DNA of 64,000 nt from Candidatus Aminicenantes bacterium. GTDB taxonomy: Bacteria > Acidobacteriota > Aminicenantia > Aminicenantales > Saccharicenantaceae. Shown piece by piece: positions 19,559-51,341 of this stretch. The number at the start of each line of letters is the position of its first letter. Within the stretch, counting starts at the first letter, position 1. The notes below the pieces were generated by a model that saw nothing but the letters and a program-made list of their open reading frames with translations, had not been told where the DNA came from and made no database searches. The position numbers and the translations under genes were made by a program. The stretch lies in contig JACIYJ010000003.1 in assembly GCA_014360015.1 (NCBI GenBank), positions 140,821-204,820 on the forward strand, in the 5' to 3' direction.

Positions 19559-19564
19559 TAAGTC

Positions 19565-23052: not shown

Positions 23053-23053
23053 G

Positions 23054-24520: not shown

Positions 24521-24521
24521 C

Positions 24522-25910: not shown

Positions 25911-25911
25911 A

Positions 25912-27000
25912 GTGCTATACTGGTTGCTTGTTCCACTCAGAGAATACTGGTTCTTTTTCAACGTCTTCCGCTACATCACGGTCAGAACTGCTCTGGCCGG
26001 AATCACGGCTCTTCTGATTATGTTCATCATTACCCCGTTGTTCATCCGTCTGCTGAAAAAGCATCAGATCGGTCAGGAAATAAGAGAAGAAGGGCCGTCA
26101 ACTCATCTGGCTAAAAAAGGTACTCCTTCTATGGGTGGAGTGATGATCATCGGAGCCACGGTGGTCTCCACCCTGCTCTGGGGTAATCTGAGTAATATCT
26201 ATGTCTGGCTGGCCACAGCCAGCATGATACTCTTTGGACTGATTGGTTTTGCTGATGATTTTATTAAATACCGGGCACGTCGCTCCTTAGGTTTAACCGC
26301 CAGACAGAAGTTGATATTCCAGTTCCTGGCTTCAGCCGCAATCGCTCTGACCCTGGTCCTCGTCGGACTTAAAGGGAAATTCGACCTGCACCTGACGTTT
26401 CCTTTTATCAAAGAGTGGACACCTTATCTGGGCTGGTTCTATCTGCCCTGGATTCTTTTCATCCTGGTTGGCTCTTCTAACGCCGTGAATTTAGCCGATG
26501 GTCTGGATGGGCTGGCTATCGGCCTGACTCTGATTGCTTCAGTAGCCCTGACCGCCCTGACCTATGTCGCCGGTCATGCTATCTGGTCTCAGTACCTTAA
26601 CATCCTTAGAGTTCCCTTAGCCGCAGAGCTGACTGTCTTTGCTGGGGCTATGTCTGGTGCCTGTCTGGGATTCCTCTGGTTTAACTGCCATCCGGCAGAG
26701 ATTTTTATGGGAGATGTGGGTGCCCTGTCTCTGGGTGGAACTCTTGGTCTCATCGCCATTCTAATCAAACAGGAATTTCTGCTGTTTGCCGTGGCTGGAG
26801 TTTTCATTCTGGAAGCCCTGTCGGTTTTGCTCCAGGTTTCTTACTTCAAGCTTTCTGGCGGCAAAAGAATTTTCAGGATGGCCCCTTTGCATCATCATTT
26901 TGAACTCGTCGGCTGGCCAGAAGAAAAAGTGGTCATCCGTTTCTGGATCATCGGAATAATCTTTGCTCTTTTCAGCTTAACTACCCTGAAGTTGAGGTAA
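25912..27000 (+). CDS. mraY: Phospho-N-acetylmuramoyl-pentapeptide transferase
   Basis: A polytopic membrane protein with the MraY motifs NAVNLADGLDGLA and HHHFE. It uses a GTG start. Confidence 0.9.
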   Translation: MLYWLLVPLREYWFFFNVFRYITVRTALAGITALLIMFIITPLFIRLLKKHQIGQEIREEGPSTHLAKKGTPSMGGVMIIGATVVSTLLWGNLSNIYVWLATASMILFGLIGFADDFIKYRARRSLGLTARQKLIFQFLASAAIALTLVLVGLKGKFDLHLTFPFIKEWTPYLGWFYLPWILFILVGSSNAVNLADGLDGLAIGLTLIASVALTALTYVAGHAIWSQYLNILRVPLAAELTVFAGAMSGACLGFLWFNCHPAEIFMGDVGALSLGGTLGLIAILIKQEFLLFAVAGVFILEALSVLLQVSYFKLSGGKRIFRMAPLHHHFELVGWPEEKVVIRFWIIGIIFALFSLTTLKLR

Positions 27001-27002
27001 AG

Positions 27003-28364
27003 ATGGAACTTAAAAATAAAAAAGTAGTGGTTGTTGGCTTCGGTAAAACTGGCCAGGCTCTTTGTGATTTTCTGCTGGAAAAACAGGCAGTGGTAACCGT
27101 CAGTGACAAAAAACCAGAAAGCCAGTTAGAAAATGTGGATATCTATAAAGAAAAGGGAGTTCACTTTGACACTGGAGCCCACCGTCTGGAACTGTTTCTG
27201 GAAGCTGACCTGGTCGTTCTAAGCCCTGGAGTTCCTCCGCTTCCAGAAATTCTGGCGGCCAGGGACAAAGGAATTAAAGTCATCTCAGAAATAGAACTGG
27301 CTTATCAATTTCTCAGAGGAAAAATCATCGGCATTACTGGCTCCAACGGCAAATCCACCACCACCACCCTCATTTACACTATCCTTAAAAACAGCGGATT
27401 TAAAGTGCACCTGACCGGTAATATTGGTACCCCCCTGATTTCTTTTGTCAGGAAAAGTAAGCCGGACCATCTCATAGTCACAGAAATTTCCAGTTTTCAA
27501 CTGGAATTTACAGAAAAATTCAGAACCGAGATTTCAGTCTTTCTGAACATTTCCCCGAATCATCTTGACTGGCATAAAACTTTTGACAATTATCTCCAGG
27601 CCAAAAAGAAACTGTTTAACCATCAACTCGCGACCGACAGAGTCATCATCAACCGCGACGATCCGAACTTATGGGCCTGGAGAAAAGAAAAACAGATTGA
27701 GCTCTATGCTTTCAGCCGAAAGCATCCGGTACCTCGAGGCTGCTACCTCAAGGACTCAACCCTCATGTTGAAGCTTGAGGAAGAACTTCCGGTTATAAAC
27801 GCCAAAGAAATCAAGCTGAGAGGGATTCACAATCAGGAAAACGTCATGGCTGCTGCCCTGACGGCTTACCTGGCTGGGGCTCGTATTCCCACCATCAGAA
27901 AGACCATAAGAAGTTTCAGAGGACTGGAACACCGGCTGGAAGAAGTTAGAACTATTAATGGCGTGCTCTTTGTCAACGATTCCAAAGCAACCACTGTTGC
28001 CGCCACCATCAAAGCCATCCAGAGTTTTGACCAACCAATCATTCTTATCCTCGGGGGGCGCGACAAAGGGGGAGATTTCTCCCCCTTACGTCGCGCTTTG
28101 AGAAACAAAGTCAGAAAAGTTCTGCTGATCGGCGAAGCTAAGGAAAAAATCAGAAAAGCCATAGAAGGTGTATGCCCGATAGAAGAAGTCAGCTCTTTTC
28201 GGCAGCTGGTGGAGAAAGGCTATGAAGCGGCCAGACCGGGGGAGGTAGTGCTCCTGGCTCCGGCCTGTACTTCATGGGATATGTTCAGGAACTTTGAAGA
28301 AAGAGGTCGATTGTTCAAGAAAGAAGTCAACTTGCTGGCCCGCAGAGTTAGAGGAAAGAAATGA
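27003..28364 (+). CDS. murD: UDP-N-acetylmuramoylalanine--D-glutamate ligase
   Basis: An N-terminal Rossmann-like domain (VVVVGFGKTG) is followed by the Mur ligase P-loop GITGSNGKSTTT. Confidence 0.9.
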   Translation: MELKNKKVVVVGFGKTGQALCDFLLEKQAVVTVSDKKPESQLENVDIYKEKGVHFDTGAHRLELFLEADLVVLSPGVPPLPEILAARDKGIKVISEIELAYQFLRGKIIGITGSNGKSTTTTLIYTILKNSGFKVHLTGNIGTPLISFVRKSKPDHLIVTEISSFQLEFTEKFRTEISVFLNISPNHLDWHKTFDNYLQAKKKLFNHQLATDRVIINRDDPNLWAWRKEKQIELYAFSRKHPVPRGCYLKDSTLMLKLEEELPVINAKEIKLRGIHNQENVMAAALTAYLAGARIPTIRKTIRSFRGLEHRLEEVRTINGVLFVNDSKATTVAATIKAIQSFDQPIILILGGRDKGGDFSPLRRALRNKVRKVLLIGEAKEKIRKAIEGVCPIEEVSSFRQLVEKGYEAARPGEVVLLAPACTSWDMFRNFEERGRLFKKEVNLLARRVRGKK

Positions 28365-29476
28365 TGGAAGTTTTTAAGAAATATTCGTTCGACAAGATTC
28401 TCCTGGTTAACACCCTTTTTCTGTTGATTCTGGGCATCATTATGGTCTTCAGCTCTTCGGCCATCCTGGCAGGAGAAAAGTACCACCAGAGCTTTTACTT
28501 TTTAACCCAGCAGATAATAGCCGCTGTCTTTGGCTCAATCCTGATGGTGGCCATCGCTTCAATCCGCAGTCCCTTTTTCACCCTGACCAAACTGGTTTAC
28601 TTAGCCACAGGTACCACCTTCCTGCTGCTTCTGCTCTGTCTGGTTATGCCACCGGTAGCCAACACTCATCGCTGGGTTCAGTTGTTTGGTGTGCGTTTCC
28701 AGCCTTCTGAGCTGGCTAAGATTGTTCTCATCCTCTTTCTGGCCAATTATTGCTCCAGAAAAGCTGACACCATCAATCACTGGAAAACCCTGCTGATTCC
28801 GGTCGGGGTAGTGATGTCTTTTGTTCTGGCCATTCTGGTAGAGCCCGATTACAGCACCGCGGCTTTCATCTTTCTGATCTCATCCATAATGTTATACTTA
28901 GGCGGAGTTAAGCTTAAACACTTTATCATTCCAGGATTGATTGCTCTGATTATTTTTGGTGTTTTCCTCTTCTCGGCCGACTACCGTCTTAACCGGGTGC
29001 ATGGATTTCTCGCGCCAGAAAAAGATCCCTTAGGCAAAGCTTTTCAGGTGAGGCAATCCAAACTGGCAGTCGGAGCTGGTGGGCTGCTGGGGGTAAGCCT
29101 CGGAGCTTCGACTCAGAAGCTCTATTTTCTTCCCTGCGCTCACACCGATTTCATCTTTGCCATTATCGGAGAAGAGATCGGGCTGGTCGGAACGATGTTT
29201 ACGGTCATCCTGTTTCTGGTCTTTCTGTTCCGGGGTTTGAAAATTGCTGACCGGTCTTCAAACAACAATTACCGATTGATCGCTTACGGACTGACCCTCA
29301 GCATAATCATCCAGGCACTGCTCAACATCAGTGTCGTGCTCGGCTTAGGTCCGGCCACAGGCATTCCTTTGCCCTTTATTTCTTTCGGTCGTTCAGCCCT
29401 GGTCTGCAACCTGATAGCTGTGGGAATCCTTCTTAACATTTCTCAGAGAAAGCTGGAGGTAAAATCAACTCTATGA
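28361..29476 (+). CDS. ftsW: Peptidoglycan glycosyltransferase FtsW (SEDS family)
   Basis: A 10-TM SEDS protein with QPSELAK and the conserved PLPF(I/L)S.GGSA region. Confidence 0.85.
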   Translation: MMEVFKKYSFDKILLVNTLFLLILGIIMVFSSSAILAGEKYHQSFYFLTQQIIAAVFGSILMVAIASIRSPFFTLTKLVYLATGTTFLLLLLCLVMPPVANTHRWVQLFGVRFQPSELAKIVLILFLANYCSRKADTINHWKTLLIPVGVVMSFVLAILVEPDYSTAAFIFLISSIMLYLGGVKLKHFIIPGLIALIIFGVFLFSADYRLNRVHGFLAPEKDPLGKAFQVRQSKLAVGAGGLLGVSLGASTQKLYFLPCAHTDFIFAIIGEEIGLVGTMFTVILFLVFLFRGLKIADRSSNNNYRLIAYGLTLSIIIQALLNISVVLGLGPATGIPLPFISFGRSALVCNLIAVGILLNISQRKLEVKSTL

Positions 29477-30567
29477 AGAGAACAACTGTGATCATTAGCG
29501 GCGGTGGTACAGGCGGACACCTCTACCCTGCTCTGGTTCTGGGACAGACCCTCAAACAACTTCAGCCCGACCTCTGGCTGGTCTATGTCGGAAGTTCCAG
29601 AGCAGTAGAAAAGAAAATAATGACTGAGCAGGCCACCACTTTTCTGACTCTACCCGTCGAAGGTCTTAAAGGCCGCGGCTGGAAAAAGCTCCGAGGACTT
29701 GTGCTTTTACCTTTCGCCTTTTTGGAATCCCTATTTATCCTGATAAAATTCCGGCCATCTCTGGTTATCGGAGTCGGTGGTTTCAGCTCCGGGCCGATCG
29801 TCCTCCTGGCTTCCTGGCTGGGGAAACCAACTATCATCCTCGAGCAAAACGCCCTGCCCGGTTTTACCAACAGAAAGCTCAGCCGTTGGGTAGATAAAGC
29901 TGTGGTTTCTTTTGCCAGTGCCCTCTCTTACTTTGGAGAAAAAGGAGTCTTGCTGGGCAATCCGGTAAGACCTGAATTTTATCGGATTCCAAAGAAAAAG
30001 CGCGAAGAAGCCTTAACCCTGCTGGTCTTCGGCGGCAGTCAGGGTTCAAAATTCCTGAACGACCGGATGATAGAATGTCTGCCATATCTCGGAGAACTCA
30101 AAAACTCCTTAATCATCTATCACCAAACCGGGGAAAAAGATTTTGAGCGAGTGGCTGAAGCCTACCGCCAGGCCGGCTTTGGTCGGGTTACAGTCAGTCC
30201 TTATTTTTCTCCTATGCCTGATTATTTCGCCCGGGCTGACCTTATCCTCTGTCGGGCGGGCGCTACTACCTGTGCTGAGCTCATCGCTGCTCATAAACCA
30301 GCCATTCTCGTCCCCTTTGCTCAGGCCGCAGACAATCACCAGGAATACAACGCTAAGGAACTGGAAAAGGCTGGTGGGGTTGAAGTTATTCTGGAAAAGG
30401 AATTCAGTCCGCAAGGTTTCATCGAAAAAATTAAATTTTACTTGAATCATAAAGAAGCTTTAGACCGGATGGAAGAGAACCTGAAAAAACTCAGTAAAGA
30501 AAACATCGCGGAAAACATCGCCCGGCTATGTCTGGAGATGATTGAATCATCCGGAAGGAGGTCATAG
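29473..30567 (+). CDS. murG: Undecaprenyldiphospho-muramoylpentapeptide beta-N-acetylglucosaminyltransferase
   Basis: GT-B fold with GGTGGH near the N-terminus and the conserved C-terminal (A/G)GA.T..E motif. Confidence 0.9.
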   Translation: MKRTTVIISGGGTGGHLYPALVLGQTLKQLQPDLWLVYVGSSRAVEKKIMTEQATTFLTLPVEGLKGRGWKKLRGLVLLPFAFLESLFILIKFRPSLVIGVGGFSSGPIVLLASWLGKPTIILEQNALPGFTNRKLSRWVDKAVVSFASALSYFGEKGVLLGNPVRPEFYRIPKKKREEALTLLVFGGSQGSKFLNDRMIECLPYLGELKNSLIIYHQTGEKDFERVAEAYRQAGFGRVTVSPYFSPMPDYFARADLILCRAGATTCAELIAAHKPAILVPFAQAADNHQEYNAKELEKAGGVEVILEKEFSPQGFIEKIKFYLNHKEALDRMEENLKKLSKENIAENIARLCLEMIESSGRRS

Positions 30568-31955
30568 TGGTCAGAAGAGGTTATCGCAAGCTCCATCGCA
30601 TTCATATGGTTGGTATAGGTGGCACCGGTATGTGCGGCATTGCTGAAGTCCTGTTGAATCTTGGTTACCAGGTTTCCGGTTCAGACCTTCAGGAGAACGA
30701 AGCTACGGCCAGACTGGCCAGGCTGGGAGCCAGAATCTATCTCGGTCATTCAGCCGATAACGTCAAAGAAGCCGATGTGGTGGTCATTTCTTCAGCCATA
30801 AGAGAAGATAATGTGGAAGTGGTCAAAGCCAAGGCTTTGAAAATACCGGTCATCCCCAGAGCTGAAATGCTGGCCGAACTCATGAGGATGAAATACGGCA
30901 TCGCCGTGGCCGGAGCTCATGGCAAGACCACCACCACTTCTATGACTGCCTTAGTCCTCGAAGCCGGTGGCTATGACCCGACCATCATCGTCGGCGGCCG
31001 TCTGAACACCATCGGTTCTAACGCCAAGCTGGGCGAAGGCGATTTCATAGTGGCTGAAGCTGATGAAAGCGACCGGTCCTTCCTGTATCTTTCACCTTTT
31101 ATCGCCGTTCTGACCAACATCGATGAAGAACATCTCGACCATTATGGAAATCTGGATGAGATAAAAAAGACCTTCATCAATTTTGCCAATAAAGTTCCTT
31201 TTTACTGCCCGGTAATACTCTGTCTTGATGACCCCAATCTGCAAAGTATCATTCCGGCTATTGAAAGAAAAATAATTACTTATGGCTTTTCTCCCCAGGC
31301 TGACATCCAAGCCAGAGATTTTACTTTTGCCGAATTTTCCAGCACTTCAACCCTTTATGCCTATGGTAAGAAACTCGGCCGGCTGAAGTTAAATGTCCCT
31401 GGAAAACACAACATCCTGAACGCCATGGCCGCTACCGCCGTTGGCCTGGACCTGGAGATTTCACCTAAAACCATTCTCAAAGCGCTGGAAGAATACACCG
31501 GGACAGGTCGCAGGTTCGAGCTAAAGAAAGTAGTTAATGACATCATGATTATTGAAGATTATGCCCATCATCCGACAGAAATAAAAGCTACTCTCGAAGC
31601 TGCCAGGACGGGCTGGAACCGGCGCTTAGTAGTGGTTTTTCAGCCACATCGCTACACCAGGCTGGCCAGATTGATGAACGATTTTGCCACCTCTTTCAAC
31701 CAGGCTGACGTCCTGGTCATTACCGAAATCTACCCAGCCGGCGAAGACCCGATTGAAGGAGTGAACGGGAAGGCCCTGTTTGAAGAAATCCAGAAATTTG
31801 GTCATAAAAACGTGAGTTTTGAGCCAATTCTGGCCAATGTCCCGGCCAGACTGGCTTCAATCCTGGCTCCTAAGGATATCCTGCTGGTCCTGGGAGCCGG
31901 GAATGTAAACCGGATAATTCCGGAAACCATAAAATTGCTGGAAGGGGAAAATTAA
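30567..31955 (+). CDS. murC: UDP-N-acetylmuramate--L-alanine ligase
   Basis: IHMVGIGGTGM is followed by the Mur ligase P-loop GAHGKTTTTSM. Confidence 0.9.
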   Translation: MVRRGYRKLHRIHMVGIGGTGMCGIAEVLLNLGYQVSGSDLQENEATARLARLGARIYLGHSADNVKEADVVVISSAIREDNVEVVKAKALKIPVIPRAEMLAELMRMKYGIAVAGAHGKTTTTSMTALVLEAGGYDPTIIVGGRLNTIGSNAKLGEGDFIVAEADESDRSFLYLSPFIAVLTNIDEEHLDHYGNLDEIKKTFINFANKVPFYCPVILCLDDPNLQSIIPAIERKIITYGFSPQADIQARDFTFAEFSSTSTLYAYGKKLGRLKLNVPGKHNILNAMAATAVGLDLEISPKTILKALEEYTGTGRRFELKKVVNDIMIIEDYAHHPTEIKATLEAARTGWNRRLVVVFQPHRYTRLARLMNDFATSFNQADVLVITEIYPAGEDPIEGVNGKALFEEIQKFGHKNVSFEPILANVPARLASILAPKDILLVLGAGNVNRIIPETIKLLEGEN

Positions 31956-31956
31956 A

Positions 31957-32829
31957 ATGGCGGTTGAAAACAGATATCCACTGAACAAGCCATTGATAAC
32001 TTCTCTTCCATTTGATTCACCGGTTTTCCACCGACCAGAAAAAACCTTCCGACTTAAAACTAAATCAGGCAGAAAGTCTCTGCGCCTGAAGCATCTGGTG
32101 GTGCTGTTCCTGGTCATGATAGTTTTCTTTTTCGGTCTGGCTGAACTTTATTATTATGCCATCACCTGTGATCAGTTAAGGATAAAACGGGTTGAAGTTT
32201 TTTCATCTAACCCTGAAGTCCAGCAACTAGTCGAAAGTTTTTTGAGCAGCAAAAACTTGGGCAACATTCTGATCTGCGACCTGAATTATTTAAGGATTAT
32301 CCTCAGCCATCTGCCTGGAGTCAAGGATGTTCGGCTGGAAAAAGTCCTGCCCTCAACCCTCAAAGTGGAAGTCTTTCCCAGAATACCAAAAGCCTATGTT
32401 TATAGAGGAAGTTATTACCTTGTAGACGAAGAAGGCCAGGTTATTGCCAGCTTTGCCAGTCTGCCTGATGATTCTTTTCCAGTGTTTGAAGATGAAGATG
32501 GCTTTAGACAAGCTTATCAACAAAAAATCAGGTCAGCCTGCCATTTACTAAACAGTCTCCAGCCTGAGGTTCGGGCTCTGATCAAGAAAATAACTTTCAG
32601 GGAAGACGGAACAATGGAACTTCAACTGGCAGAGGACCCGGTTAAAATCATCCTGGATGAAACTGACTTTGCCGAAAAATTGAACTATTACTTGAGCAAC
32701 AAGAATTCCTGGACAGAATTATTCGGCGAGCTGGAGTATGTTGATCTCCGGATCGAAGGACGGGCTTACATCAAACCAGCCCCTCAGGCAGAAAATCAAC
32801 CGTCTGCTGGGAAAAAGGAGGTAAGTTAA
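31957..32829 (+). CDS. ftsQ: Cell division protein FtsQ/DivIB (POTRA domain)
   Basis: It has a single TM helix, a POTRA-like segment and a beta domain. Its position directly before ftsA is canonical. Confidence 0.75.
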   Translation: MAVENRYPLNKPLITSLPFDSPVFHRPEKTFRLKTKSGRKSLRLKHLVVLFLVMIVFFFGLAELYYYAITCDQLRIKRVEVFSSNPEVQQLVESFLSSKNLGNILICDLNYLRIILSHLPGVKDVRLEKVLPSTLKVEVFPRIPKAYVYRGSYYLVDEEGQVIASFASLPDDSFPVFEDEDGFRQAYQQKIRSACHLLNSLQPEVRALIKKITFREDGTMELQLAEDPVKIILDETDFAEKLNYYLSNKNSWTELFGELEYVDLRIEGRAYIKPAPQAENQPSAGKKEVS

Positions 32830-34049
32830 TGGCCAGAAATAATTATTTGGTTGGTCTGGACATCGGGACCAAAAAGACAGTCGCCATCATCGGGGAAATT
32901 ACCGAAGAACAGAAAGTGGAAATCATCGGTATCGGGGTGGCAGAATCACGCGGTATTCGTAAGGGCGTAGTGGTTAATCTCGACCAAACCATCTCGGCCA
33001 TAAAAAGAGCTCAAGAAGAAGCCGAGCTGATGGCCGGTGTGGAAATAGATTCGGCTTATGTTGGGATTTCGGGTTCTCATATCAAAAGCTTCAACAGCCG
33101 GGGCGTGGTGGCGGTCTCAGGAAAGAACCGGGAAATATCCAGAGAAGATATCCGTCGGGTTATCGATCAGGCCAGGGCTCTTTCCATTCCGCCTGATCGG
33201 GAAATCATCCATATCATTCCCCAGGAATTCATCGTGGATGAGCAAGATGGAATTAAGGACCCCCTGGGAATGAGCGGGATAAAATTAGAAGTCAACGTCC
33301 ATATCGTGACTTCAGCCATCACTTCGTTGCAGAATCTCAAAAACTGTCTGGAAAGAGCCGGGATTGGCCTTCAGGAAATCGTCCTGAATCAGATTGCCAC
33401 CAGCTATTCTGTTCTGACCCATGATGAGCGGGAACTCGGGGTAGGCTTGATTGATATCGGAGCAGGAACAACCGAAGTTGCCATCTTTGAAAGGGGCTCT
33501 CTCTGGTATACCTCAACCATTCCTCTCGGCGGTGATAATTTCACTAACGACATTGCTGTTGGCTTGAGAACACCGATTCCTGAAGCCGAAAAAATCAAGA
33601 AAAAATACGGCTGTGTGGCTCTGCCGATATCAGAAGAACAGGAAACCATCGAAGTCCCGACCGTAGGTAAAGGCCGAAAATCCCGGGTCCTTTCCCGGCA
33701 AATTCTGGCCGATATCATTCAACCGCGGGCCGAAGAAATTTTCAGGCTGGTCGATGCTGACATCAAACGAATGGGTTATGAAAAATCGCTAAATTCTGGA
33801 ATCGTCTTGACCGGAGGCACCGCTCTGCTGGATGGTCTGGAGGAAGTGGCTGAAGAAATCTTCGACCTGCCAGTAAGACGTGGGGACCCGAATTACGTCG
33901 GGGGGTTAATTGATCGGGTGAGTACCCCGGATTATGCCACTGCGGTTGGGCTCATCCTTTATGGCTACAACCAGATTCAAGAACGTGGTTTTTCTAAGGA
34001 TAAAAAGAAAAGTTTCTGGACCAGAATCAAAGATTGGTTCAATGAGTAA
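32829..34049 (+). CDS. ftsA: Cell division protein FtsA
   Basis: Actin-like ATPase motifs are present (VGLDIGT..., DIGAGTT, GGTA). A C-terminal amphipathic helix is included. Confidence 0.9.
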
Positions 34050-34059
34050 GGAGGGCAAA

Positions 34060-35271
34060 ATGCGCGATGACTTTGGCAGTAAAATTAAGTTTCATTTAGC
34101 GGAAGAAAATCTCGGTGCTAAAATCAAAGTGATCGGAATCGGCGGTGGTGGGGGAAATGCCGTTAACCGGATGATCGAAGCCGGTATAGAAGGGGTGGAA
34201 TTTATCGCCATCAACACCGATAAACAGGCTTTGAGCAACAATCTGGCTCCCTTAAAAATACAAATTGGAAGCAAGCTGACCAAAGGATTGGGTTCAGGCG
34301 GCAACCCGGATATCGGCCGCCAGGCAGCTGAAGAAGATACCGATCGTCTGGCTGAAATCCTGGAGGGTGCTGACATGGTCTTCCTGACTGCCGGACTCGG
34401 TGGCGGAACCGGAACGGGCGCTACTCCGGTTATCGCCAACCTGGCTGCCGGGATGGAGATTCTGGTAATTGCCATAGTTACTATGCCTTTTGCCTTTGAA
34501 GGCCGGATTCGAGCCAGACAGGCAGAAGAAGGTCTACAGGAACTCAAGTCAGTGGTGGATACAGTCATTGCCATTCCCAATGAACGGCTGCTGGAAACAG
34601 TCAACTTGAATACCTCTATCCCCGATGCTTTCCGGATGGCCGATGACATTCTGCGGCAGGCAGCCCAGGGCATCTCGGACTTGATTACCAAACCCGGTCT
34701 GATCAACCTGGATTTTGCTGACGTCAAGTCAATCATGAAAGGTATGGGTATGGCTTTTATGGGTACCGGCATTGCTACGGGCGAAAACCGGGCTGTAGAA
34801 GCCGCTCAAAAAGCCATCAGCAGCCCGCTTTTGATTGACACCTCGATCGAAGGAGCCAAAGGAGTGCTCATCAACATCACCGGAGGAAAAGACATGACCC
34901 TGCACGAAGTTTCCAAAGCCTCGCAGCTGGTGACCAGCCTGGCTGACCCCGAAGCCAACATCATTTTCGGCACAGTTATTGATGAGAATATGCGTGATAC
35001 TATAAAAGTAACAGTCATTGCCACAGGATTTGACCGGAAAAAACCGAAGACAGCCACCCCAGAAGAAATCAGAAGAAACCTGACCAGAACTCAACCCTCT
35101 GTGCCGGTAAACACACCCACTCCTCCCTATGTTTTTGAGCCCAAGGGAGCTCGGGAGCCTATTATTGAGCCCAATCCGCCTCAAATCGACTGGAATGAGC
35201 TCAACACTCCGGCTTTTATCAGAAAAACCAGGCAATTCTCTCTGAGGAAAACGCCCAATGATTTACGCTGA
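34060..35271 (+). CDS. ftsZ: Cell division GTPase FtsZ
   Basis: AAGGAGG lies 6 nt upstream of the ATG at 34060. The tubulin signature GGGTGTG, the T7 loop and the conserved C-terminal peptide NTPAFIRK are present. The longer ORF-track start at 33934 overlaps ftsA and is rejected. Confidence 0.9.
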
Positions 35272-39447: not shown

Positions 39448-40962
39448 TCAGAATCTGTCCATTATTCGGTACTGAATGGCTTCAGCTACAGCGGCAGCTG
39501 ATATTTTTTCTTCTCCGGCTAAATCAGCAATGGTTCTGGCTACTTTCAAAATTCGGTCATAAGCTCTGGCACTGAACCGGAATCGCTTCATGGCTGTTTC
39601 CATCAATCTGTCGCCATCGGAGTCGAGCAAACAGAAGTGACGAATGTCCCGAGAATTCATCTGAGAATTAGCAAAGATCTTTCTTCCCTTAAACCTTTCC
39701 CACTGAATTCTTCTGGCTGCTGAAACTCTTTTTCTGATTTCGGCCGATGGTTCCCCTGGTGGCTTTCCGATTATGTCCTGGTATTTGACTGAGGGCACTT
39801 CGACCTGAATGTCTATCCGGTCCAGAAGCGGTCGGGAAAGTCGGGAATAATATTTTCTTCTTTCTATCTCAGTGCAATTGACTTCTCCACCAGAACCGAG
39901 AAAAACATCGGCACAAGGGTTCATGGCGGCCACCAGCATGAAAGAGCAGGGATAGGTTATACTCGATGAGACGCGAGAAATGGTCACCTGACCATCTTCT
40001 AAGGGTTGTCGCAGACTCTCCAGGGCCTGACGGCTGAATTCCGGGAATTCATCCAGGAAAAGAACTCCCCGATGAGCCAGGCTGACTTCTCCAGGACGAG
40101 GATAATTGCCTCCTCCGACGAGGCCGGTATCGGTAATGGTATGGTGGGGAGACCTGAATGGCCTCTGGCTAATGGCTGATCTATCGCCCAGGAGACCAGC
40201 CGCACTGTAAATTTGAGTGACTTCGATGATTTCTTCGAAGGCCATTTCTGGTAGAATTGTCGGCAACCGCCTGGCCAACATGGTCTTTCCTGAACCTGGG
40301 GGGCCGATCATCAGGAGGTTGTGACCTCCGGCCGCAGCCACCTCTAAGGCTCTCTTGGCCTGGTGCTGCCCCCTGACTTCGGAAAAATCCAGCTCAGACG
40401 GGCTTTCTCCGATAAGTTCGGGCAGGGAATACTTGGCCGGCTTTATCTCGTCTGAACCACCCAGCAGTTTAACCACTTCCAACAAATGGCGGAGGCCATA
40501 GACCGGAAAGTTCTGAACAAGGCAGGCCTCTTTTTCGTTTCTTTTTGGCAGGACCAGTCCGGCAAATTTTTTCTTACTGGCCAGAAGAGAGAAAGGTAGG
40601 GCTCCCCGCACCGCTTTCAAACTGCCTTCCAGAGTCAATTCACCAACAAAGAGATACTGAGTCAGTTTCTCAGCGGATATGGTCCCGAGAAAAGCCAAAA
40701 GTCCAAGAGCAATCGGCAGGTCGAAAGAGGAGCCTTCCTTCTTTCGGCTGGCCGGAGCTAAGTTGATGATGATTTTCTTCGCCGGAAAATCAAAGCCGCA
40801 ATTCCGCAGAGCTGTCCTGACTCTTTCTTTACTCTCACGCACAGCCGCATCCGGCAGGCCGACGATGATAAAAGCTGGTAAACCCTGAGAGATGTCTACC
40901 TCCACATCTACCAAATAAGCCTCAATTCCGTGAAGAGAAGCACTCGGGATTCTTATAAGCAT
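39448..40962 (-). CDS. comM: YifB/ComM family Mg-chelatase-like AAA+ ATPase
   Basis: A Lon-like N-terminal domain is followed by Walker A GPPGSGKT, Walker B LFLDEFPEF and the ChlI-type C-terminus. Confidence 0.85.
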   Translation of the reverse strand: MLIRIPSASLHGIEAYLVDVEVDISQGLPAFIIVGLPDAAVRESKERVRTALRNCGFDFPAKKIIINLAPASRKKEGSSFDLPIALGLLAFLGTISAEKLTQYLFVGELTLEGSLKAVRGALPFSLLASKKKFAGLVLPKRNEKEACLVQNFPVYGLRHLLEVVKLLGGSDEIKPAKYSLPELIGESPSELDFSEVRGQHQAKRALEVAAAGGHNLLMIGPPGSGKTMLARRLPTILPEMAFEEIIEVTQIYSAAGLLGDRSAISQRPFRSPHHTITDTGLVGGGNYPRPGEVSLAHRGVLFLDEFPEFSRQALESLRQPLEDGQVTISRVSSSITYPCSFMLVAAMNPCADVFLGSGGEVNCTEIERRKYYSRLSRPLLDRIDIQVEVPSVKYQDIIGKPPGEPSAEIRKRVSAARRIQWERFKGRKIFANSQMNSRDIRHFCLLDSDGDRLMETAMKRFRFSARAYDRILKVARTIADLAGEEKISAAAVAEAIQYRIMDRF

Positions 40963-41009: not shown

Positions 41010-41867
41010 TTACTTTTTCTTGGTCAGACCGAATTCCTTAGACAGGCGTTCGATTTCCCGTTCAATGTCTTCAATCGACTGGACTTTGATTTTGGTCGTG
41101 GGAAAGGGGACTTCATCACCGGGTTTGACAAATTCTATCTTAAGTTCTTCTGGTTTCTTCTCTGCCTTTTTTCGGGCTGGAGTTTCCCCGGCTGTTTTAA
41201 TATCAGCTCCTGAGGCAACCATTTCTGCCGGCCGAGGACCTTCTGGTTCTGCTTTTTCCGGAGTTGGTATTTTTTCCCCAAAAATTCTGGCTCTGACCAC
41301 CGGGACTGTCAGCCGGGCTATTTCTTTGAGAGTCTCGAGCACCCCACGCCCGTTGATGGCTTCGGCTTCAATGTAAGGAGCATTGCGGTGGTTTAACAGC
41401 CGGTTGAAAGTTTCCACCGGAATCAGATTCGGCAGGTCACGTTTGTTGTATTGAAAAACCAGGGGAATCTGGTTGAGATCTATGTTTTGTTCTAAGCAGT
41501 TCCTTCGCAGACCGTCAAAGCTTTCCAGGTTAGCCTCGAGAAGAGGCAACTGAGAGTCAGCCACAAAAACTATGCCATCAGCCCCTTTGAGAACACTTTT
41601 TCTCGAAGCTTCATAAAATACCTGACCGGGGACGGTCAGCAGTTGAAAATGAACCTTAAAATCTTTAATCAATCCAGCCTTTATAGGCAAAAGATCAAAA
41701 AAGAAAGTTCTTTCGGTTTCGGTTTCCAGGCAGACCAGCTCACCGCGATAAGCTGGCTCAAGCTTGAAATAAATATACCTGAGGTTGGTGGTCTTCCCGC
41801 TCAGGCCAGGTCCATAGTAGACAATCTTGATAGCGATATTCTTAGTTACATAGTTGACATAAGCCAT
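41010..41867 (-). CDS. MglA-like Ras-superfamily small GTPase with a roughly 90-aa K/E/P-rich C-terminal extension
   Basis: AYVNYVTKNIAIKIVYYGPGLSGKTTNL...LLTVPGQVFYEASR...QYNKRDLPN aligns along the whole length of MglA (mutual gliding-motility protein A). GGGGAG lies 9 nt upstream of the ATG at 41867. The tail (from GEKIPTPEKAEPEG to GLTKKK) has no MglA counterpart. Confidence 0.8.
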   Translation of the reverse strand: MAYVNYVTKNIAIKIVYYGPGLSGKTTNLRYIYFKLEPAYRGELVCLETETERTFFFDLLPIKAGLIKDFKVHFQLLTVPGQVFYEASRKSVLKGADGIVFVADSQLPLLEANLESFDGLRRNCLEQNIDLNQIPLVFQYNKRDLPNLIPVETFNRLLNHRNAPYIEAEAINGRGVLETLKEIARLTVPVVRARIFGEKIPTPEKAEPEGPRPAEMVASGADIKTAGETPARKKAEKKPEELKIEFVKPGDEVPFPTTKIKVQSIEDIEREIERLSKEFGLTKKK

Positions 41868-41886
41868 CTGCATTATCTCCCCGCTC

Positions 41887-41901
41887 TGATAATTGTTATC
41901 A
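41887..41901. promoter_or_regulatory. Fur-family-type 7-1-7 inverted repeat TGATAAT-T-GTTATCA just upstream of the mglA-like gene
   Basis: It matches the Bacillus-type Fur/PerR/Zur 7-1-7 consensus TGATAAT-N-ATTATCA at 13 of 14 positions. It lies 5 nt upstream of the RBS of 41010..41867 and in the divergent region shared with 42028..42498. Confidence 0.4.
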
Positions 41902-42027
41902 TAGCCATATAGATTTAGTCAACAAATATTGAATTTAATTGAGAATTTTGTTTAATTTGAAAAGAGCTGAGGTCTGTGGTATTTTTTAAACTAAAAAAGA
42001 CACATTTTAGGGGAGCGGAGAAAACCA

Positions 42028-42498
42028 GTGGAATTAATAGATATAAGGAACAGGCCAAGAATCGCTGTCATCGGCGGAAACAATCCGGATGAAAAATCCA
42101 GGAAGACAGCTTATGAAGTCGGAAAGCTGCTGGCTGAAAAAGGAGCCATCTTGGTTTGCGGCGGTCTGGGTGGGGTAATGGAAGAAGCAGCGCGGGGAGC
42201 CAAAGAAGCCGGTGGTTTGACCATCGGTATTCTTCCGGGAACCAGACCAGATGAAGCCAATCGCTTTATAGACCTGGCCATTGCCACTGGTATAGGTTAC
42301 AACCGGAATTCAATGGTAGTCCTCAACGCCAGCGCAGTGATTGCTATTGATGGAGAATACGGCACGCTAAGCGAAATTGCCTATGCTCGAATTTTCGGCA
42401 AAAAAATCATCGGTCTTAATACCTGGAATATTAAGGGCCTCATCCCGGCCTGGACACCTGAAGAAGCTGTGGAACTGGCCTTATCAGATATTAAGTGA
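42028..42498 (+). CDS. TIGR00725/LOG-like Rossmann-fold nucleotide-binding protein
   Basis: RIAVIGGNNP...VCGGLGGVMEEAARGA...IGILPG...AVIAIDGEYGTLSE has the pattern of the LOG / SLOG (DprA-like) family. It uses a GTG start. Confidence 0.65.
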   Translation: MELIDIRNRPRIAVIGGNNPDEKSRKTAYEVGKLLAEKGAILVCGGLGGVMEEAARGAKEAGGLTIGILPGTRPDEANRFIDLAIATGIGYNRNSMVVLNASAVIAIDGEYGTLSEIAYARIFGKKIIGLNTWNIKGLIPAWTPEEAVELALSDIK

Positions 42499-47124: not shown

Positions 47125-47919
47125 TTAAACCTCGCTTTGCTGCAATTCTTTTTTGACCAGATTTATTTTGAGCAGAAGCTGACGTTCTTCAATCATTTCC
47201 CTGACCCTCTCTAATTCTGCTTCTGAAAGGCCTGAGCTCAACTGGGTCAGTTCTAAGAACAGAAGTTCAATCTGGTCGCAGATGGCTTTGGCTTTGAGTA
47301 ATTTGACATCATCGAGCTGGGCATTCAGGTATTTTTTCTCGGTCAGTAATTGCTGAATCTTATCTCTGGTCAGGAAAATTGAGACCTCATCCTGTTTTCT
47401 GGTTTGCAGCAATTCCAGAATCAAATACTGACTGCGGTCAAGATAATCTATGGTTTCCCTTCTGGCCAGAGCTAAGTCCACTTTTTCGATAAAATCTGCA
47501 GGCACACTCACCTTTGACTCCTGACGGGCTGTCAGAAAACTGGGCTTTTGAGGCTTAATGACAAAATAGGTAAAAAAGGCGCCAAGCAGCAAACCAAAGA
47601 TAAGACCTGCGGCCAAGGGTTGCCATCTCCAGCGATAAAACCAGGAATCAACAAGTTTTTTCTGTCTTTCTTCCTCCCTCTTCCAGACTCTATCAGTGAG
47701 AATTGATGGGAGTTTATCCCAGTCTACCGTGCTCATGACTTCCTGGAGCTCAGTCTTAAAATCCTTAGACATTGAGAAAAGTCTTTTTATTTCCTCAACT
47801 TCTTTCTGGCAAGCAGAACAGTGCTTCAAATGCTCAGCCACCTCCTGCGCCCTCGATGGCGCCAGCTCGTTGCTGAGATAAGCCACCAAATCTCTTTTAT
47901 ATTTATGACATCTATTCAC
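47125..47919 (-). CDS. Anti-sigma factor with N-terminal zf-HC2 zinc finger, one TM helix and an extracytoplasmic coiled-coil domain
   Basis: The zf-HC2 motif reads HLKHCSACQKEVEE (H-x3-C-x2-C). The TM helix is LAAGLIFGLLLGAFFTYFVI. The gene overlaps the sigma gene by 4 nt. Confidence 0.75.
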   Translation of the reverse strand: MNRCHKYKRDLVAYLSNELAPSRAQEVAEHLKHCSACQKEVEEIKRLFSMSKDFKTELQEVMSTVDWDKLPSILTDRVWKREEERQKKLVDSWFYRWRWQPLAAGLIFGLLLGAFFTYFVIKPQKPSFLTARQESKVSVPADFIEKVDLALARRETIDYLDRSQYLILELLQTRKQDEVSIFLTRDKIQQLLTEKKYLNAQLDDVKLLKAKAICDQIELLFLELTQLSSGLSEAELERVREMIEERQLLLKINLVKKELQQSEV

Positions 47920-48494
47920 AGACCACCTCCAAGCTGAGGAGCCAGAATTTTCCTCAATTTTTGAATAGCTTTAAAATGCAATGACTTAACTGTTCCCACC
48001 GAAATCTGCAGCCTCTCAGCAATTTCTTCATATTTAAGCTCATCGTAATGATGAAGAATAAAAACCAGCTTCTGTTTTTCCGGAAGTCTGGCCACGGCTT
48101 TGTGGATCATTTCCTTCGGGTTAAACTTAGCCGGGTCATCACTCGGCGATGGCAGGTCAACTCGCCCCAGTTCCAGAACATCGAGGTTGTCTTTTTTTCT
48201 GGACTTCTGTCTTCTCAGAAAATCTATGCTGAGATTTCTGGCAATCTGCATCAACCAGGCGGTGAAATTTTCCTTAGGACGATAAGTTTGGATTTTTTCG
48301 TAAAGTCTCATAAAAGTCTCTTGAACCAGGTCCAGAGCATCTTCCCTGTTCCTGACCATAGAATAGGCCAGGATGAAAACTTTCTGCTGATAACCTTCGA
48401 CAATCTTCATGAAAGCTTCTTTATCTCCCTGTTTGATTCTCTCAACCAGGAATTCCACCTCAATTTCACTGATGCAGCCATTTCTCTGTTCCAT
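47916..48494 (-). CDS. RNA polymerase sigma-70 factor, ECF subfamily
   Basis: Region 2 (DALDLVQETFMRLY) and a region 4 HTH (ELKYEEIAERLQISVGTVKSLHFKAIQKLR) are present in a 192-aa protein. Confidence 0.85.
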   Translation of the reverse strand: MEQRNGCISEIEVEFLVERIKQGDKEAFMKIVEGYQQKVFILAYSMVRNREDALDLVQETFMRLYEKIQTYRPKENFTAWLMQIARNLSIDFLRRQKSRKKDNLDVLELGRVDLPSPSDDPAKFNPKEMIHKAVARLPEKQKLVFILHHYDELKYEEIAERLQISVGTVKSLHFKAIQKLRKILAPQLGGGL

Positions 48495-48540: not shown

Positions 48541-48954
48541 TCATTCCAACCACAAGAGTATTTTTTCTTCTTCACTCCAGACTTCAGCCAGAAGTCCTCT
48601 GGGTAATCTGGAAATAGCCTGGAAAAAGGCTCGGGTATCGAAATCGTAATCCAGTTTCTTAGCCCGGGGATATTCGGAGTCTTCGATGGCTTCCCTCAGG
48701 CCTTTTTTAGCCAGCCAAAGAGGCAGGGATATTCTGACCAGTTGTTCTTTGTCCGGCTCATAGACAAGCATAACCAGGCGATGCGGTCTTCTGAGATGAG
48801 AAGAGCGGTTGGACAGCCTGGCGATTCTTTCTTTAGCCTGCTGGAAATGAATTTCGGCCTTGTGGGAATCGGTTTCTACAGCCACCACTAAGCAGGAAGA
48901 GAGAGTTATCAGAATAAGTCCAATAACTGCCGCCAGCTTTATCTGGTAAACCAT
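48541..48954 (-). CDS. Putative lipoprotein with a C-terminal WLE-tail domain (paralogue 3)
   Basis: GAGGAG lies 6 nt upstream of the ATG at 48954. The signal peptide carries an L-S-S-C lipobox. The shared domain reads ...LVRISLPLWLAKK...LLAEVWSEEEKILLWLE. The longer TTG-initiated ORF-track version (to 48981) is rejected. Confidence 0.6.
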   Translation of the reverse strand: MVYQIKLAAVIGLILITLSSCLVVAVETDSHKAEIHFQQAKERIARLSNRSSHLRRPHRLVMLVYEPDKEQLVRISLPLWLAKKGLREAIEDSEYPRAKKLDYDFDTRAFFQAISRLPRGLLAEVWSEEEKILLWLE

Positions 48955-49110
48955 TTTCTTCTCCTCACATTTTATCTCCAATAGAGATAACGGAAGAAAA
49001 GAAAATAAGGTTTACCTGTGAAAAAATAACTTTCCTGACTTTAGCCTTACAGACCAGGGCTGCAGCAATTAATTGGAATTTTGAAAAGAAGGCAGCTCAG
49101 TCAGAATCAA

Positions 49111-49410
49111 TCAATATCTGCGGAAATTTCTTCTCTGCTGAGGGCCAGCTCCGGGACGGCGTTCGCCGCTTTTCTTCTCACTTTTCGGTCTGGCATCGTT
49201 GACGATGATCTTGCGGCCGTCAAATTCGGTCCCGTTGAGTCTGGTTTTAGCTTCCTGAGCCATTTCTTCGGTGGACATTTCCACGAAACCAAAGCCCCGA
49301 CCCTGCAGGATGTTAACTGAGGTAACTTCTCCATACTGAGAAAAGAGATCCTTCAGTTTCTCCTCGGTGGTCTTGTAGTTCAAGTTACCTACATAAAGTT
49401 TTAGAGACAT
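49111..49410 (-). CDS. RRM-type RNA-binding protein (glycine/arginine-rich tail)
   Basis: RNP2 is LYVGNL and RNP1 is RGFGFVEM. The C-terminus is R/G-rich. AGGAGG lies upstream of the ATG at 49410. The ORF-track N-terminal extension to 49518 is hydrophobic nonsense and is rejected. Confidence 0.85.
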   Translation of the reverse strand: MSLKLYVGNLNYKTTEEKLKDLFSQYGEVTSVNILQGRGFGFVEMSTEEMAQEAKTRLNGTEFDGRKIIVNDARPKSEKKSGERRPGAGPQQRRNFRRY

Positions 49411-49535
49411 ACAAAAAACCTCCTTGACCTCTCCAAATCGGCTTTCCCCCTCTTCAGGAAGGAGCAACTCGACTGAAAAGGCAGAAATTATGATGCCATA
49501 GAAAAAAAACAAAATCAAGAAAATTTTAAACTGTT

Positions 49536-51341
49536 TCAGGTGGGTGGATGCAGGCGTTTTTTGAACCAGACCCGGAGTTTTTCCATCTTCTCACGCTGAG
49601 CCAGAGGGGCCCGACGCCGGCAGGTGCAAATTTCTTCTGATCCTTCTGGTGCTCCCCAGCGGACCTCCACACAGTCGTTGGGATTGTAAGCCATTTCAAA
49701 AGCCTCTTTTCGCTTGAGAATTTCTTTGAGGCTCAGGGTCCAGGGCCGACCGTCAGACCTGGTGTAGGTTATTGAAAGCTCTTCAGCCAGCCTGGAAGAA
49801 AGGCTTTCCAGTCTGGCTTTTATTTTTTCCGGCGACTCAGATTTCTTAATTCTGAACCGTTCAGGATGCTTCAAAACTTTTTCCGGAAACTCCTCAATGG
49901 TATCCATGGCGATTAGCAGCCTCAGGTCACGGTTGGGCGTTGAATAGTCCTCCCAGGGACCGGTTGTCAGAAAGACAGTTGAACCAGAGGGCATGGGAAT
50001 AACATAACCCGGATGCTCCTGCATAAATTTTTCGCCAATTTCAACCGACTCCACCCTGACCAGCAACTGTTCATGGAGTGCCCGATAAAGTTCCCGGAGA
50101 GCAGTTTCCGGGTCAAGGGGTTCTGGGTTTATCAGCCGTTCCATTCGCTCGTAGAATTCTTCTGGCTGCAGTTTCAACTGTTCGAGCGAAAAATTACCAT
50201 AGTCCTGGCTGTCCTGAATTTCCTGGTTGGTCATCAACCTGAGCTTACCCCCACTGTTCGTTATTGGTCTGAAAGCTTTAAAACCTGGCTGGCCGACAAC
50301 ATTCTCTGTAGCAAAAAGAAAATTACCCTTCCAGAATCTTTTTATTCCGACAGTACCATCTGGCTGAGCGTCAACTGCCAGAAGTTCACCGGCTTTGTTC
50401 TCTGTCTGGGGCACCCAGCGAACTATGATTAGGGTGTGTCCATAAGGGTCAGCATAGACTACACCCGGGCGGAGGTGATTCCTCGAAAGAGGCAAAGGAT
50501 AATAATCAGAGACTTCTGCCGCTAACCTGGTTCTGGCTGTTCCCGAATGGACGGTATCCATCAGAAGGCGCATCAACCTGGCAAATTTTTTGACCTCATC
50601 ACCCGGTCTGGTCGGCAGCTCATTGGTCAGCCAGCGACCGCAGGTTGGGGCCTGAGTCAACGAGCCGCGACTGCATTCATGGAAACCAAAAGGCAGTCTG
50701 TTTTTCCAGGCAAAATAGGCTCTAAGGAAAAAAGGATTATCCGCACAATCTGGCTCGAGACTAAGGGCCCCATTGTCTTCAGATAAGCCCAGATGATTAT
50801 GAAGGAAATTTCTCCCGGGATCACGGAGGATGGAATGTAAATTTGGCCAGGAATCGTTCTCATCAGCACCATGAAAAAGTGCCTCTATCCAGGCTGAATA
50901 AAGGTTTTCCTCAGCTCTGGTCCAGCTTTTTTCTGCTTTCCAGAAAACACCGGATTCCGGGAGCCCTGGATGAAATGGAGAAACTTCAATGGTCCGAGAG
51001 AAAACAACTTTACTGCCAAGACAAATCTCCAGCCTGTATTGACCAGAAGTTACCACCCTTCCTTGCCACCATTGCCAGAAAGGCGGCCCGCCTCCTTTCT
51101 TTACCAGGGTTAATTTCTCCGCTTTTAGTTGGAGTCCTTTGAGATTGATTTCCAGATTTTTTTCGGGAATCTCTTTTTCGGAAGAAATAATCAATCTGAA
51201 GGTCATTCCAGGTGACAAACGGGCAGGAGAAACCAGAACAGATATTTCCTCCCGGGCAGACCAACCTGGCGTAAAGTTAACAGCAAGAAGAAGCCCGAAC
51301 AGCAGCAGTCTGGTTTTAATTTTAATCACTCGGTCTCTCAC
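49536..51341 (-). CDS. Large secreted hypothetical protein (601 aa)
   Basis: A signal peptide is present. No confident domain assignment was possible. A possible Cys...His...Asp arrangement (HECSRG ... YGHTLII ... DAQPDG) is only weakly reminiscent of transglutaminase-like folds. Confidence 0.5.
   Translation of the reverse strand: MRDRVIKIKTRLLLFGLLLAVNFTPGWSAREEISVLVSPARLSPGMTFRLIISSEKEIPEKNLEINLKGLQLKAEKLTLVKKGGGPPFWQWWQGRVVTSGQYRLEICLGSKVVFSRTIEVSPFHPGLPESGVFWKAEKSWTRAEENLYSAWIEALFHGADENDSWPNLHSILRDPGRNFLHNHLGLSEDNGALSLEPDCADNPFFLRAYFAWKNRLPFGFHECSRGSLTQAPTCGRWLTNELPTRPGDEVKKFARLMRLLMDTVHSGTARTRLAAEVSDYYPLPLSRNHLRPGVVYADPYGHTLIIVRWVPQTENKAGELLAVDAQPDGTVGIKRFWKGNFLFATENVVGQPGFKAFRPITNSGGKLRLMTNQEIQDSQDYGNFSLEQLKLQPEEFYERMERLINPEPLDPETALRELYRALHEQLLVRVESVEIGEKFMQEHPGYVIPMPSGSTVFLTTGPWEDYSTPNRDLRLLIAMDTIEEFPEKVLKHPERFRIKKSESPEKIKARLESLSSRLAEELSITYTRSDGRPWTLSLKEILKRKEAFEMAYNPNDCVEVRWGAPEGSEEICTCRRRAPLAQREKMEKLRVWFKKRLHPPT

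Follow-up and report, generated by a model that had tools for sequence, protein, structure and literature searches.

A long MglA GTPase of Aminicenantes with a conserved C-terminal module and comM as its neighbor

MglA serves as a model for how a Ras-like switch sets polarity in bacteria, and its separate partners, MglB and RomR/RomX, are central to that model. We analyzed a stretch of 64,000 nucleotides (nt) from a Candidatus Aminicenantes bacterium (contig JACIYJ010000003.1, positions 140,821 to 204,820), called the window below, that encodes an MglA with a long C-terminal tail. The characterized MglAs are 195-196 amino acids (aa) long and are encoded in an operon with mglB (PMC4316618). In a 2014 survey, Group 1 MglAs were mostly 186-196 aa, with a few longer proteins such as one of 313 aa in Fibrobacter, and 390 of 449 members of the MglA family were coupled to MglB while 59 were uncoupled (PMC4316618). 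Bdellovibrio is without mglB altogether, and the acidobacterium Koribacter is among the species with no predicted MglB (PMC4316618, PMC3983030). The established roles of MglA in Myxococcus xanthus and Bdellovibrio concern type IV pili and pole identity (PMC7519303, PMC3983030). The MglB of M. xanthus ends in a D/E-rich helix that follows a flexible extension and binds a pocket on MglA that includes K181 and K185 (helix alpha5), L64 and I67; the helix promotes nucleotide exchange in MglA, and the Glu-rich C-terminus of RomR can replace it (PMC6785124). The basic residues of the pocket are reported not to be conserved in MglAs whose MglB is without the helix (PMC6785124).

What is new at the locus described here is a C-terminal module that defines a clade of MglAs, with comM as its fixed partner gene. 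The literature that we searched held no mention of MglA in Aminicenantes or Acidobacteriota or of a conserved tail on MglA, no mention of a conserved mglA-comM gene pair, and nothing relevant on pili or motility in Saccharicenans or on ComM together with MglA. The gene and its GTPase domain occupy the following positions.

41010..41867, minus strand: the long mglA gene, stop codon included, with 285 aa when translated from M3; the alternative upstream ATG at 41873 gives 287 aa.
41877..41882, minus strand: ribosome-binding site GGGGAG, read from the sequence; GGGGAGA is kept in most relatives.
41295..41867, minus strand: MglA GTPase domain, residues 1-191, from the phmmer search of PDB, sequence identity, Foldseek and the invariant catalytic residues.

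In the list of open reading frames (ORFs), the gene is a minus-strand ORF at 41010..41873 with 287 codons for amino acids. The true start is probably the second in-frame ATG, M3, at 41867, because the homologues in our alignment all start with MAY or MAF and because a ribosome-binding site, GGGGAG, precedes that ATG by 9 nt. Residues are numbered from M3 throughout, which is the same as the numbering of M. xanthus MglA. The original prediction, made from the letters of this DNA, had given the gene a span of 41010-41901; the ORF is real, but the upper end of that span takes in the 5' leader and a palindrome that lie beyond it.

The N-terminal two-thirds of the protein matched known MglAs in sequence and fold. 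A phmmer search of PDB sequences matched residues 1-189 to M. xanthus MglA (6hjh/5ymx) at E 4e-69 and also recovered Thermus thermophilus MglA (3t12) at E 1e-60. Identity to M. xanthus MglA was 58% over 188 residues, with zero gaps. When the AlphaFold model was used in Foldseek, MglA structures ranked first, with a target-normalized TM of 0.81 and alignments that ended at ~190 columns. Searches of Pfam and NCBIfam with the full protein gave only sub-threshold Ras and small_GTP matches and no family above its own cut-off, and the family assignment is therefore made from the PDB sequence and fold matches.

The motifs that had been named in the original prediction, the P-loop GPGLSGKT, TVPGQ and the G4 motif NKRD, were all found. 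A hallmark of MglA is a Thr where G3 otherwise has its conserved Asp (PMC3000849, PMC4316618); Thr78 takes the place of that Asp in the Aminicenantes protein (TVPGQ = TxxGQ), and the catalytic Gln82 is kept. The intrinsic arginine finger, whose role in MglA has been described (PMC4316618), is R53. It was kept in all 86 homologues that we aligned, and G19, G21, K25, T26, T78, Q82 and N141/K142/D144 were likewise invariant (86/86). From these matches the gene is a genuine Group 1 MglA, a Ras-like small GTPase, and its intact motifs indicate that it is catalytically complete. The basic alpha5 positions that correspond to M. xanthus K181 and K185 were K or R in 82/86 and 86/86 of the long MglAs, respectively. 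At the other pocket positions, I67 was retained and L64 was replaced by alanine.

The remaining ~95 aa form a real, translated C-terminal extension, close to the ~90 aa first proposed. It has two parts, a disordered linker and then a conserved terminal module.

41142..41294, minus strand: end of helix alpha5 and disordered E/A/K/P-rich linker, residues 192-242, from the predicted local distance difference test (pLDDT), identity and the spread of lengths.
41028..41141, minus strand: conserved C-terminal module, residues 243-280, KIEFVKPGDEVPFPTTKIKVQSIEDIEREIERLSKEFG, from identity, length, selection and rarity.
41028..41075, minus strand: predicted acidic amphipathic helix IEDIEREIERLSKEFG, residues 265-280, from AlphaFold.
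41013..41027, minus strand: short basic end LTKKK, from the sequence; variable, usually K-rich in homologues.

The three parts of the protein differed in how they varied among the 86 homologues. The GTPase domain had a mean pairwise identity of 0.84 and a constant length. The linker (residues ~198-242) had a mean pairwise identity of 0.21 and ranged in length from 21 to 55 aa. The module (38 aa in this protein) had a mean pairwise identity of 0.53 and a length of 34-38 aa, with nearly no insertions or deletions, and its family consensus was IEFVxPxxxxPFxxTKIKxKSxxDIExELEKLSKEF. The linker was composed of 18% E, 16% A, 14% K and 14% P. The tail had been described as long and charged, which holds for its K/E-rich composition, but the net charge was only ~+1 for the linker and ~+1 for the module.

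We compared synonymous and non-synonymous change in 26 genes of the Saccharicenans group. There were 0.437 synonymous differences per codon in the module compared to 0.481 in the GTPase domain, and 0.152 non-synonymous differences per codon in the module compared to 0.061 in the GTPase domain. Because synonymous change was as frequent in the module as in the GTPase domain and non-synonymous change was low, the module is conserved at the level of the protein and is under purifying selection. The similar rates of synonymous change rule out a DNA or RNA element, such as a promoter for comM inside the 3' end of mglA, as the cause of the conservation.

Structure prediction gave a helix near the end of the tail. 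In the full-length AlphaFold model, made with the 86-sequence alignment, the mean pLDDT was 60, residues 202-265 were below 50, and a helix at residues 265-278 had a pLDDT of 51-59; the tail was not confidently placed. When the 50-aa tail was modeled alone, there was a single helix at positions 30-45 (IEDIEREIERLSKEFG) with a pLDDT of ~88, preceded by an extended stretch with a pLDDT of 66-79, and no hairpin. In the helix, I/I/I/L/F are spaced 3-4-3-4 among E, R and K, a heptad-like spacing typical of a helix that packs against a protein. The last ~40 aa had been called globular-looking, which the models do not show; they give one helix after an extended stretch, with low confidence in the full-length model.

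We found no known family for the tail. Three tail variants were compared with Pfam at E values up to 10, and none of the matches was significant; the three listed (E 0.0093-0.18) were sub-cut-off and unrelated, and Robl_LC7 was not among them. Apart from noise, the only PDB sequences that the module matched were those of strand-strand-helix proteins designed de novo (E 0.004). Half of a ribbon-helix-helix domain and a ferredoxin-like half-domain were considered for the tail and dropped, as neither had profile support. A fused substitute for the roadblock/LC7 protein MglB was ruled out: the module has 38 aa compared to ~100 aa for the roadblock fold, and no relative in Pfam or PDB.

Among the matches listed, all 120 homologues had the tail architecture; it was also present in 25 Saccharicenans/Aminicenantes genomes and in 20 metagenome contigs. 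The 120 listed homologues covered 84-99% of the query, and at least 97% except for two apparent contig-end fragments. Among these matches, the nearest homologues (80-99% identity) came from metagenome-assembled genomes of Candidatus Saccharicenans and Aminicenantes, for which the phylum at NCBI is Aminicenantota, and a second tier with 63-70% identity and 260-291 aa was labeled Aminicenantales, Acidobacteriota or Terriglobales. That the last ~40 aa are conserved in these relatives is the opposite of the poorly conserved tail that the original prediction had named as grounds for doubting its view. Judged from sequence, the combination of linker and module defines a clade of MglAs.

The module was rare outside MglA. 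We built a profile from 41 tails and searched 1.84 billion representative proteins with it (E ≤ 0.001). Only 38 proteins matched, and nearly all of these were fragments from the C-terminal end of a long MglA. When metagenome contigs were scanned for degenerate patterns with this profile, 20 loci were recovered, and all 20 encoded long MglAs. The one further type of protein that had the module was a CheY-like receiver, found as P0145 (186 aa) and P0159 (189 aa), in which the receiver domain is followed by a K/E linker and then by the module. This combination was seen on three contigs, P0145 on two from different samples and P0159 on one more. On the longest of these contigs, the start of the receiver gene overlaps the stop codon of a gene for a pilT/pilU-family ATPase, and the receiver gene is followed by cheR and then by a PilZ-domain gene (L029:682-1242, plus strand, and its neighbors; also L030). 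The module is thus portable: two different signaling proteins carry it as a C-terminal tag.

The closest relatives of these receivers were in Aminicenantales and had either no tail or a different acidic C-terminal helix. P0171-P0180 (L054:6658-7173) are ~80% identical to the receiver domain of P0145 and end in a different acidic helix, EEDINKEIRDIYTIMG. The L054 relative, which does not have the module, is encoded in a cluster of two-component and gas-vesicle genes that has no link to pili. This pattern suggests that C-terminal helices are swapped among single-domain receiver regulators.

We examined the gene neighborhood, up to 10 kb on either side of mglA, at 51 related loci (L001-L053), which came from 25 reference genomes, 20 metagenome contigs and 6 loci that were looked up individually. 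The genes on either side in the window are as follows.

39448..40962, minus strand: comM/yifB, a Mg-chelatase-like AAA+ ATPase (TIGR00368, E 3e-189), 47 nt downstream of mglA.
42028..42498, plus strand: divergent SLOG-cluster4/TIGR00725 ("LOG-like") gene, from Pfam and NCBIfam, with its own conserved promoter.

Pfam and NCBIfam thus agree with the neighbors first proposed, comM 47 nt downstream and a divergent LOG-like gene upstream. comM was downstream of mglA and on the same strand at all 51 loci. In the window, mglA and comM are likely to be co-transcribed, because the gap between them is 47 nt long and there is no terminator-like site on its minus strand. The pairing of the two genes is suggestive of a functional link.

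No mglB was detected near mglA at any of the 51 loci, which bears out the original prediction that none is adjacent. We searched with M. xanthus MglB (identical to PDB 6h5b_B), a single-sequence query that can miss very divergent roadblock proteins, and found no match among the six-frame ORFs of at least 50 aa in the window (phmmer --max) or near mglA at the related loci (phmmer --max for 30 of them, and default phmmer at E ≤ 1e-3 for all). Pfam likewise detected no Robl_LC7 in the small ORFs of the window or among the neighboring genes. An mglB within four genes, which is typical of the MglA family and not obligatory for it, is therefore not found here. The four genes upstream of mglA are SLOG-cluster4, truA, a GNAT gene (rimI-like) and tsaB, and the four downstream are comM and genes for an amino-acid permease, a radical-SAM/B12 protein and an amidohydrolase.

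The reading that we favor, and hold with moderate confidence, is that this protein is a functional Group 1 MglA switch that gained a tethered protein-docking tag in a clade of Aminicenantes and other Acidobacteriota. The GTPase domain would work as it does in M. xanthus, being "on" when bound to GTP and hydrolyzing GTP by means of its intrinsic arginine finger and Gln82. The disordered spacer would be free to vary, and the conserved 38-residue peptide, an extended segment followed by the acidic amphipathic helix, would be the tag, acting by analogy like the peptide that FtsZ conserves at its C-terminus, beyond a variable linker. Most likely, the tail would anchor the switch to another protein, which could be a component of the pilus machinery or the cell pole or the product of comM. 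Given the roles of MglA in M. xanthus and Bdellovibrio, the switch probably acts on type IV pilus or cell-pole functions. In favor of this reading are the intact catalytic residues, the contrast between a freely varying linker and a module under selection, the rarity of the module outside MglA, its presence on a receiver encoded beside pilT, the heptad-like spacing in the helix, the constant comM neighbor next to a changing upstream side and the pilMNOPQ genes of the window. Because Gly21, Arg53 and Gln82 are retained, the protein should still cycle and probably still needs a GTPase-activating protein, which could be an MglB encoded elsewhere.

Several observations weigh against this reading. 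The confidence of AlphaFold in the tail was low in the full-length model, and we found no partner. The receiver fusion is rare, with only two clusters at 90% identity, and because of this the link to pili rests on one operon and on the roles of MglA in Myxococcus and Bdellovibrio. comM directly adjoins mglA at 49 of the 51 loci; an oppositely oriented ackA lies between them at the other two (L033 and L046). The wider order of housekeeping genes is also largely conserved in the lineage, and because of this the adjacency of comM could be inherited gene order and not functional coupling.

Another explanation, attractive but in our view unlikely, is that the tail is a built-in regulatory helix. 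Within one molecule or from one molecule to another, the acidic helix would occupy MglA's own allosteric pocket, formed by alpha5 and the beta2-beta3 loop, where it would stabilize the state with beta2 flipped and promote the exchange of nucleotide. Such a switch would be in part free of MglB, and the receiver with the tail would be a RomR-like competitor for this pocket. The precedent is the MglB helix in the pocket of M. xanthus MglA, which the RomR helix can replace (PMC6785124). The tail fits it in several ways. It has a D/E-rich helix (IEDIEREIERLSKEFG) after a disordered linker of ~50 aa, in line with the helix that ends an extension of more than 15 aa in that work (PMC6785124), and the receiver, linker and acidic helix have the layout of RomR. 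The alpha5 positions are K or R in nearly all of the long MglAs and I67 is kept, and these basic residues are reportedly not conserved in MglAs that are paired with an MglB lacking the helix (PMC6785124). The lack of mglB at all 51 loci is also consistent with this explanation. However, there is no detectable relationship between the tail and the C-terminus of MglB (BLASTP E 0.74; hhalign probability 0.5%), the pLDDT of the helix in the full-length model is low (51-59), L64 of the pocket is alanine in the long MglAs, and the conserved 20-aa extended part of the module (IEFVxP...PFxxTKIK) is absent from the MglB helix. Moreover, the basic residues of alpha5 would fit equally well with an ordinary MglB or RomR encoded elsewhere. 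One can extend this explanation to a whole circuit, which in our estimation is improbable: the module would be a portable address or regulatory tag, specific to Aminicenantes and other Acidobacteriota, that plugs both MglA and a PilT-linked receiver into the allosteric pocket of MglA, so that MglA has its own exchange-promoting helix and no MglB, the receiver is a competitor controlled by phosphorylation, and comM places the switch in a pilus-dependent DNA-uptake (competence) circuit and not in motility reversal.

The tail could also be a tag for self-association, in which the heptad-patterned helix, possibly together with the strand-like segment before it, packs against its counterpart in a second molecule and makes MglA dimeric or clustered at its site of action. 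The 3-4-3-4 spacing of the hydrophobic residues with charged flanks, the resemblance of the segment to the idealized strand-strand-helix units of designed proteins and the strictly conserved length and register of the module are all compatible with this, but 16 residues in a single helix are few for a coiled coil that is to be stable. That the receiver has this tag too would favor a shared receptor, although mixed pairing is possible, and on balance self-association seems to us improbable as well. We regard as very improbable that the K/E/P-rich extension is a non-specific electrostatic tail that binds membrane or nucleic acid or is an entropic spacer. The linker is biased toward E, A, K and P, the protein ends in a basic KKK, and the motif TKIKxK is strand-like with alternating basic residues, all of which might suggest such a tail, but the net charge of the linker and the module is close to neutral (~+1 each), and there were no Pfam matches to DNA-binding families. 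The helix is acidic, its one hydrophobic stripe is narrow, and it is unlike the membrane-targeting helices of the MinD/FtsA type, which does not favor the DNA- or membrane-binding role first suggested for the tail. The position-specific conservation and the purifying selection indicate a specific binding surface.

A Fur-type box had been proposed at the mglA promoter. We aligned 170 nt upstream of the start codon from 30 related loci, 25 of them from close relatives.

41917..41922, minus strand: -35 element TTGACT of the mglA promoter; TTGAC[TA] is found 48-63 nt upstream of the start codon at 30/30 loci.
41893..41901, minus strand: extended -10 element TGATAACAA (TGnTAWMWA), 18 nt after the -35 element and at the same position in 23/25 close relatives.
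41887..41901, no strand assigned: Fur-consensus-like palindrome TGATAATTGTTATCA, with one mismatch to TGATAATnATTATCA, overlapping the extended -10 element.

The intergenic region at 41902-42027 holds two back-to-back sigma-70-like promoters with extended -10 elements, which are conserved across the Saccharicenans genomes. The promoter that faces mglA consists of TTGACT, 18 nt and TGnTAACAA. The one that faces the SLOG gene, also conserved, consists of TTGAAA at 41957-41962, 17 nt and TGnTATTTT ending at 41985.

If the palindrome were a Fur operator, mglA and comM would be under the control of iron. The palindrome exists as proposed: TGATAATTGTTATCA differs by one mismatch from the 7-1-7 Fur consensus TGATAATnATTATCA and is the only match this close in the 64 kb, where ~0.3 sites with up to two mismatches are expected by chance in a window of this size, and its overlap with the -10 region is a common place for a repressor to bind. 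It is not conserved, however. The best Fur-like match in each of the 30 relatives had 4-7 mismatches, so that none of the 30 loci had a match with fewer than four. The extended -10 element (TGnTAWMWA, 18 nt downstream of the conserved TTGACT) accounts for the promoter-proximal half of the palindrome. The remaining half, which reads AATTATCA on the coding strand, occurs in this genome only and is missing from all 30 relatives. The window encodes no Fur homologue, but this says nothing about the genome overall. The box thus exists as a sequence match, but as an operator it is most probably a coincidence, and we consider iron regulation the least probable of the explanations discussed here.

The upstream side of mglA varies more than the downstream side. 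The SLOG gene is adjacent to mglA in the Saccharicenans group, and the context is entirely different in L001. More distant members have four GT1 glycosyltransferase genes, with two small unannotated ORFs before them, directly upstream of mglA and on the same strand (L001:621-5138, L002:5435-9948, L031:3386-7893 and L032:3374-7888), and in three of these four loci the block lies between the SLOG gene and mglA. The SLOG protein has a weak, sub-threshold match to the DprA family; a DprA-like fold beside comM may reflect only the fold shared by the SLOG superfamily.

The set of pilMNOPQ genes noted at the outset was also found in the window. pilM, pilN, pilO, a weak pilP and an AMIN-secretin pilQ extend from 59008 to the end of the window, 17 kb from mglA. 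Elsewhere in the window, there is a dcw-like cluster of division and cell-wall genes at 21265-35271 (plus strand), recognized by size, order and comparison with L002 and L033; it is bounded by mraZ (19537-20070) and ftsZ (33934-35271), the two genes covered by the Pfam check. Three minus-strand genes encode an ECF sigma factor (47916-48494), a 146-aa ORF without a family match (48541-48981) and a bacterial RRM-domain protein (49111-49518). ORFs of 601 aa (49536-51341, minus strand) and 811 aa (55135-57570, plus strand) had no Pfam match even at E ≤ 10.

A clade in which MglA carries a tethered peptide, mglB is never adjacent and comM always is would show that the MglA switch can be wired differently. 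If the peptide occupies the allosteric pocket, nature would have built the mechanism of the MglB helix into a single chain. If its targets are pilus or competence proteins, MglA would be tied to the uptake of DNA. As the organisms are uncultured, the practical value is limited.

The protein had been called an orphan MglA. It is true that mglB is not adjacent, but this is not unusual in itself, and the orphan state is not novel, because uncoupled MglAs are documented (59/449), among them Bdellovibrio MglA, SofG and the Koribacter protein (PMC4316618, PMC3983030). The MglA of Bdellovibrio bacteriovorus likewise has no mglB within four genes, but it has a Ser21 that is predicted to lock it in the GTP state (PMC3983030), whereas the long MglAs have Gly21 (86/86). 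Acid345_0708 of Koribacter versatilis also has no mglB within four genes, but it is 194 aa long and has no tail. SofG of M. xanthus, which is also an extended MglA paralogue, is likewise uncoupled from mglB within four genes.

Outside the MglA family, the Rag/Gtr GTPases carry a fused C-terminal roadblock domain and offer an analogy, that of a small GTPase with a partner-like element at its C-terminus; the 38-aa module is far too short for a roadblock fold, however, and does not match Robl_LC7. FtsZ has the same layout as the long MglA, with a globular GTPase, a linker that is variable in length and free of conserved sequence, a short conserved peptide and often a basic end. The partners of the FtsZ peptide include FtsA and ZipA. 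This too is an analogy only, as the GTPase folds are unrelated and so are the peptides.

Like the tail, the C-terminus of MglB and the Glu-rich end of RomR place an acidic helix after a flexible extension, and the matching pocket of MglA has conserved basic residues. Here the helix, known from sequence and prediction, is on the GTPase itself and not on a regulator; it has no detectable sequence homology to the C-terminus of MglB, and it is accompanied by an extra conserved extended segment. The MglAs of M. xanthus and T. thermophilus have the same fold, P-loop, R53, Thr78, Gln82, NKxD and basic alpha5 as the Aminicenantes protein, the 58% identity being with M. xanthus. The Aminicenantes protein differs from both in its ~95 extra C-terminal residues with the module, and its gene is followed by comM where theirs has an adjacent mglB.

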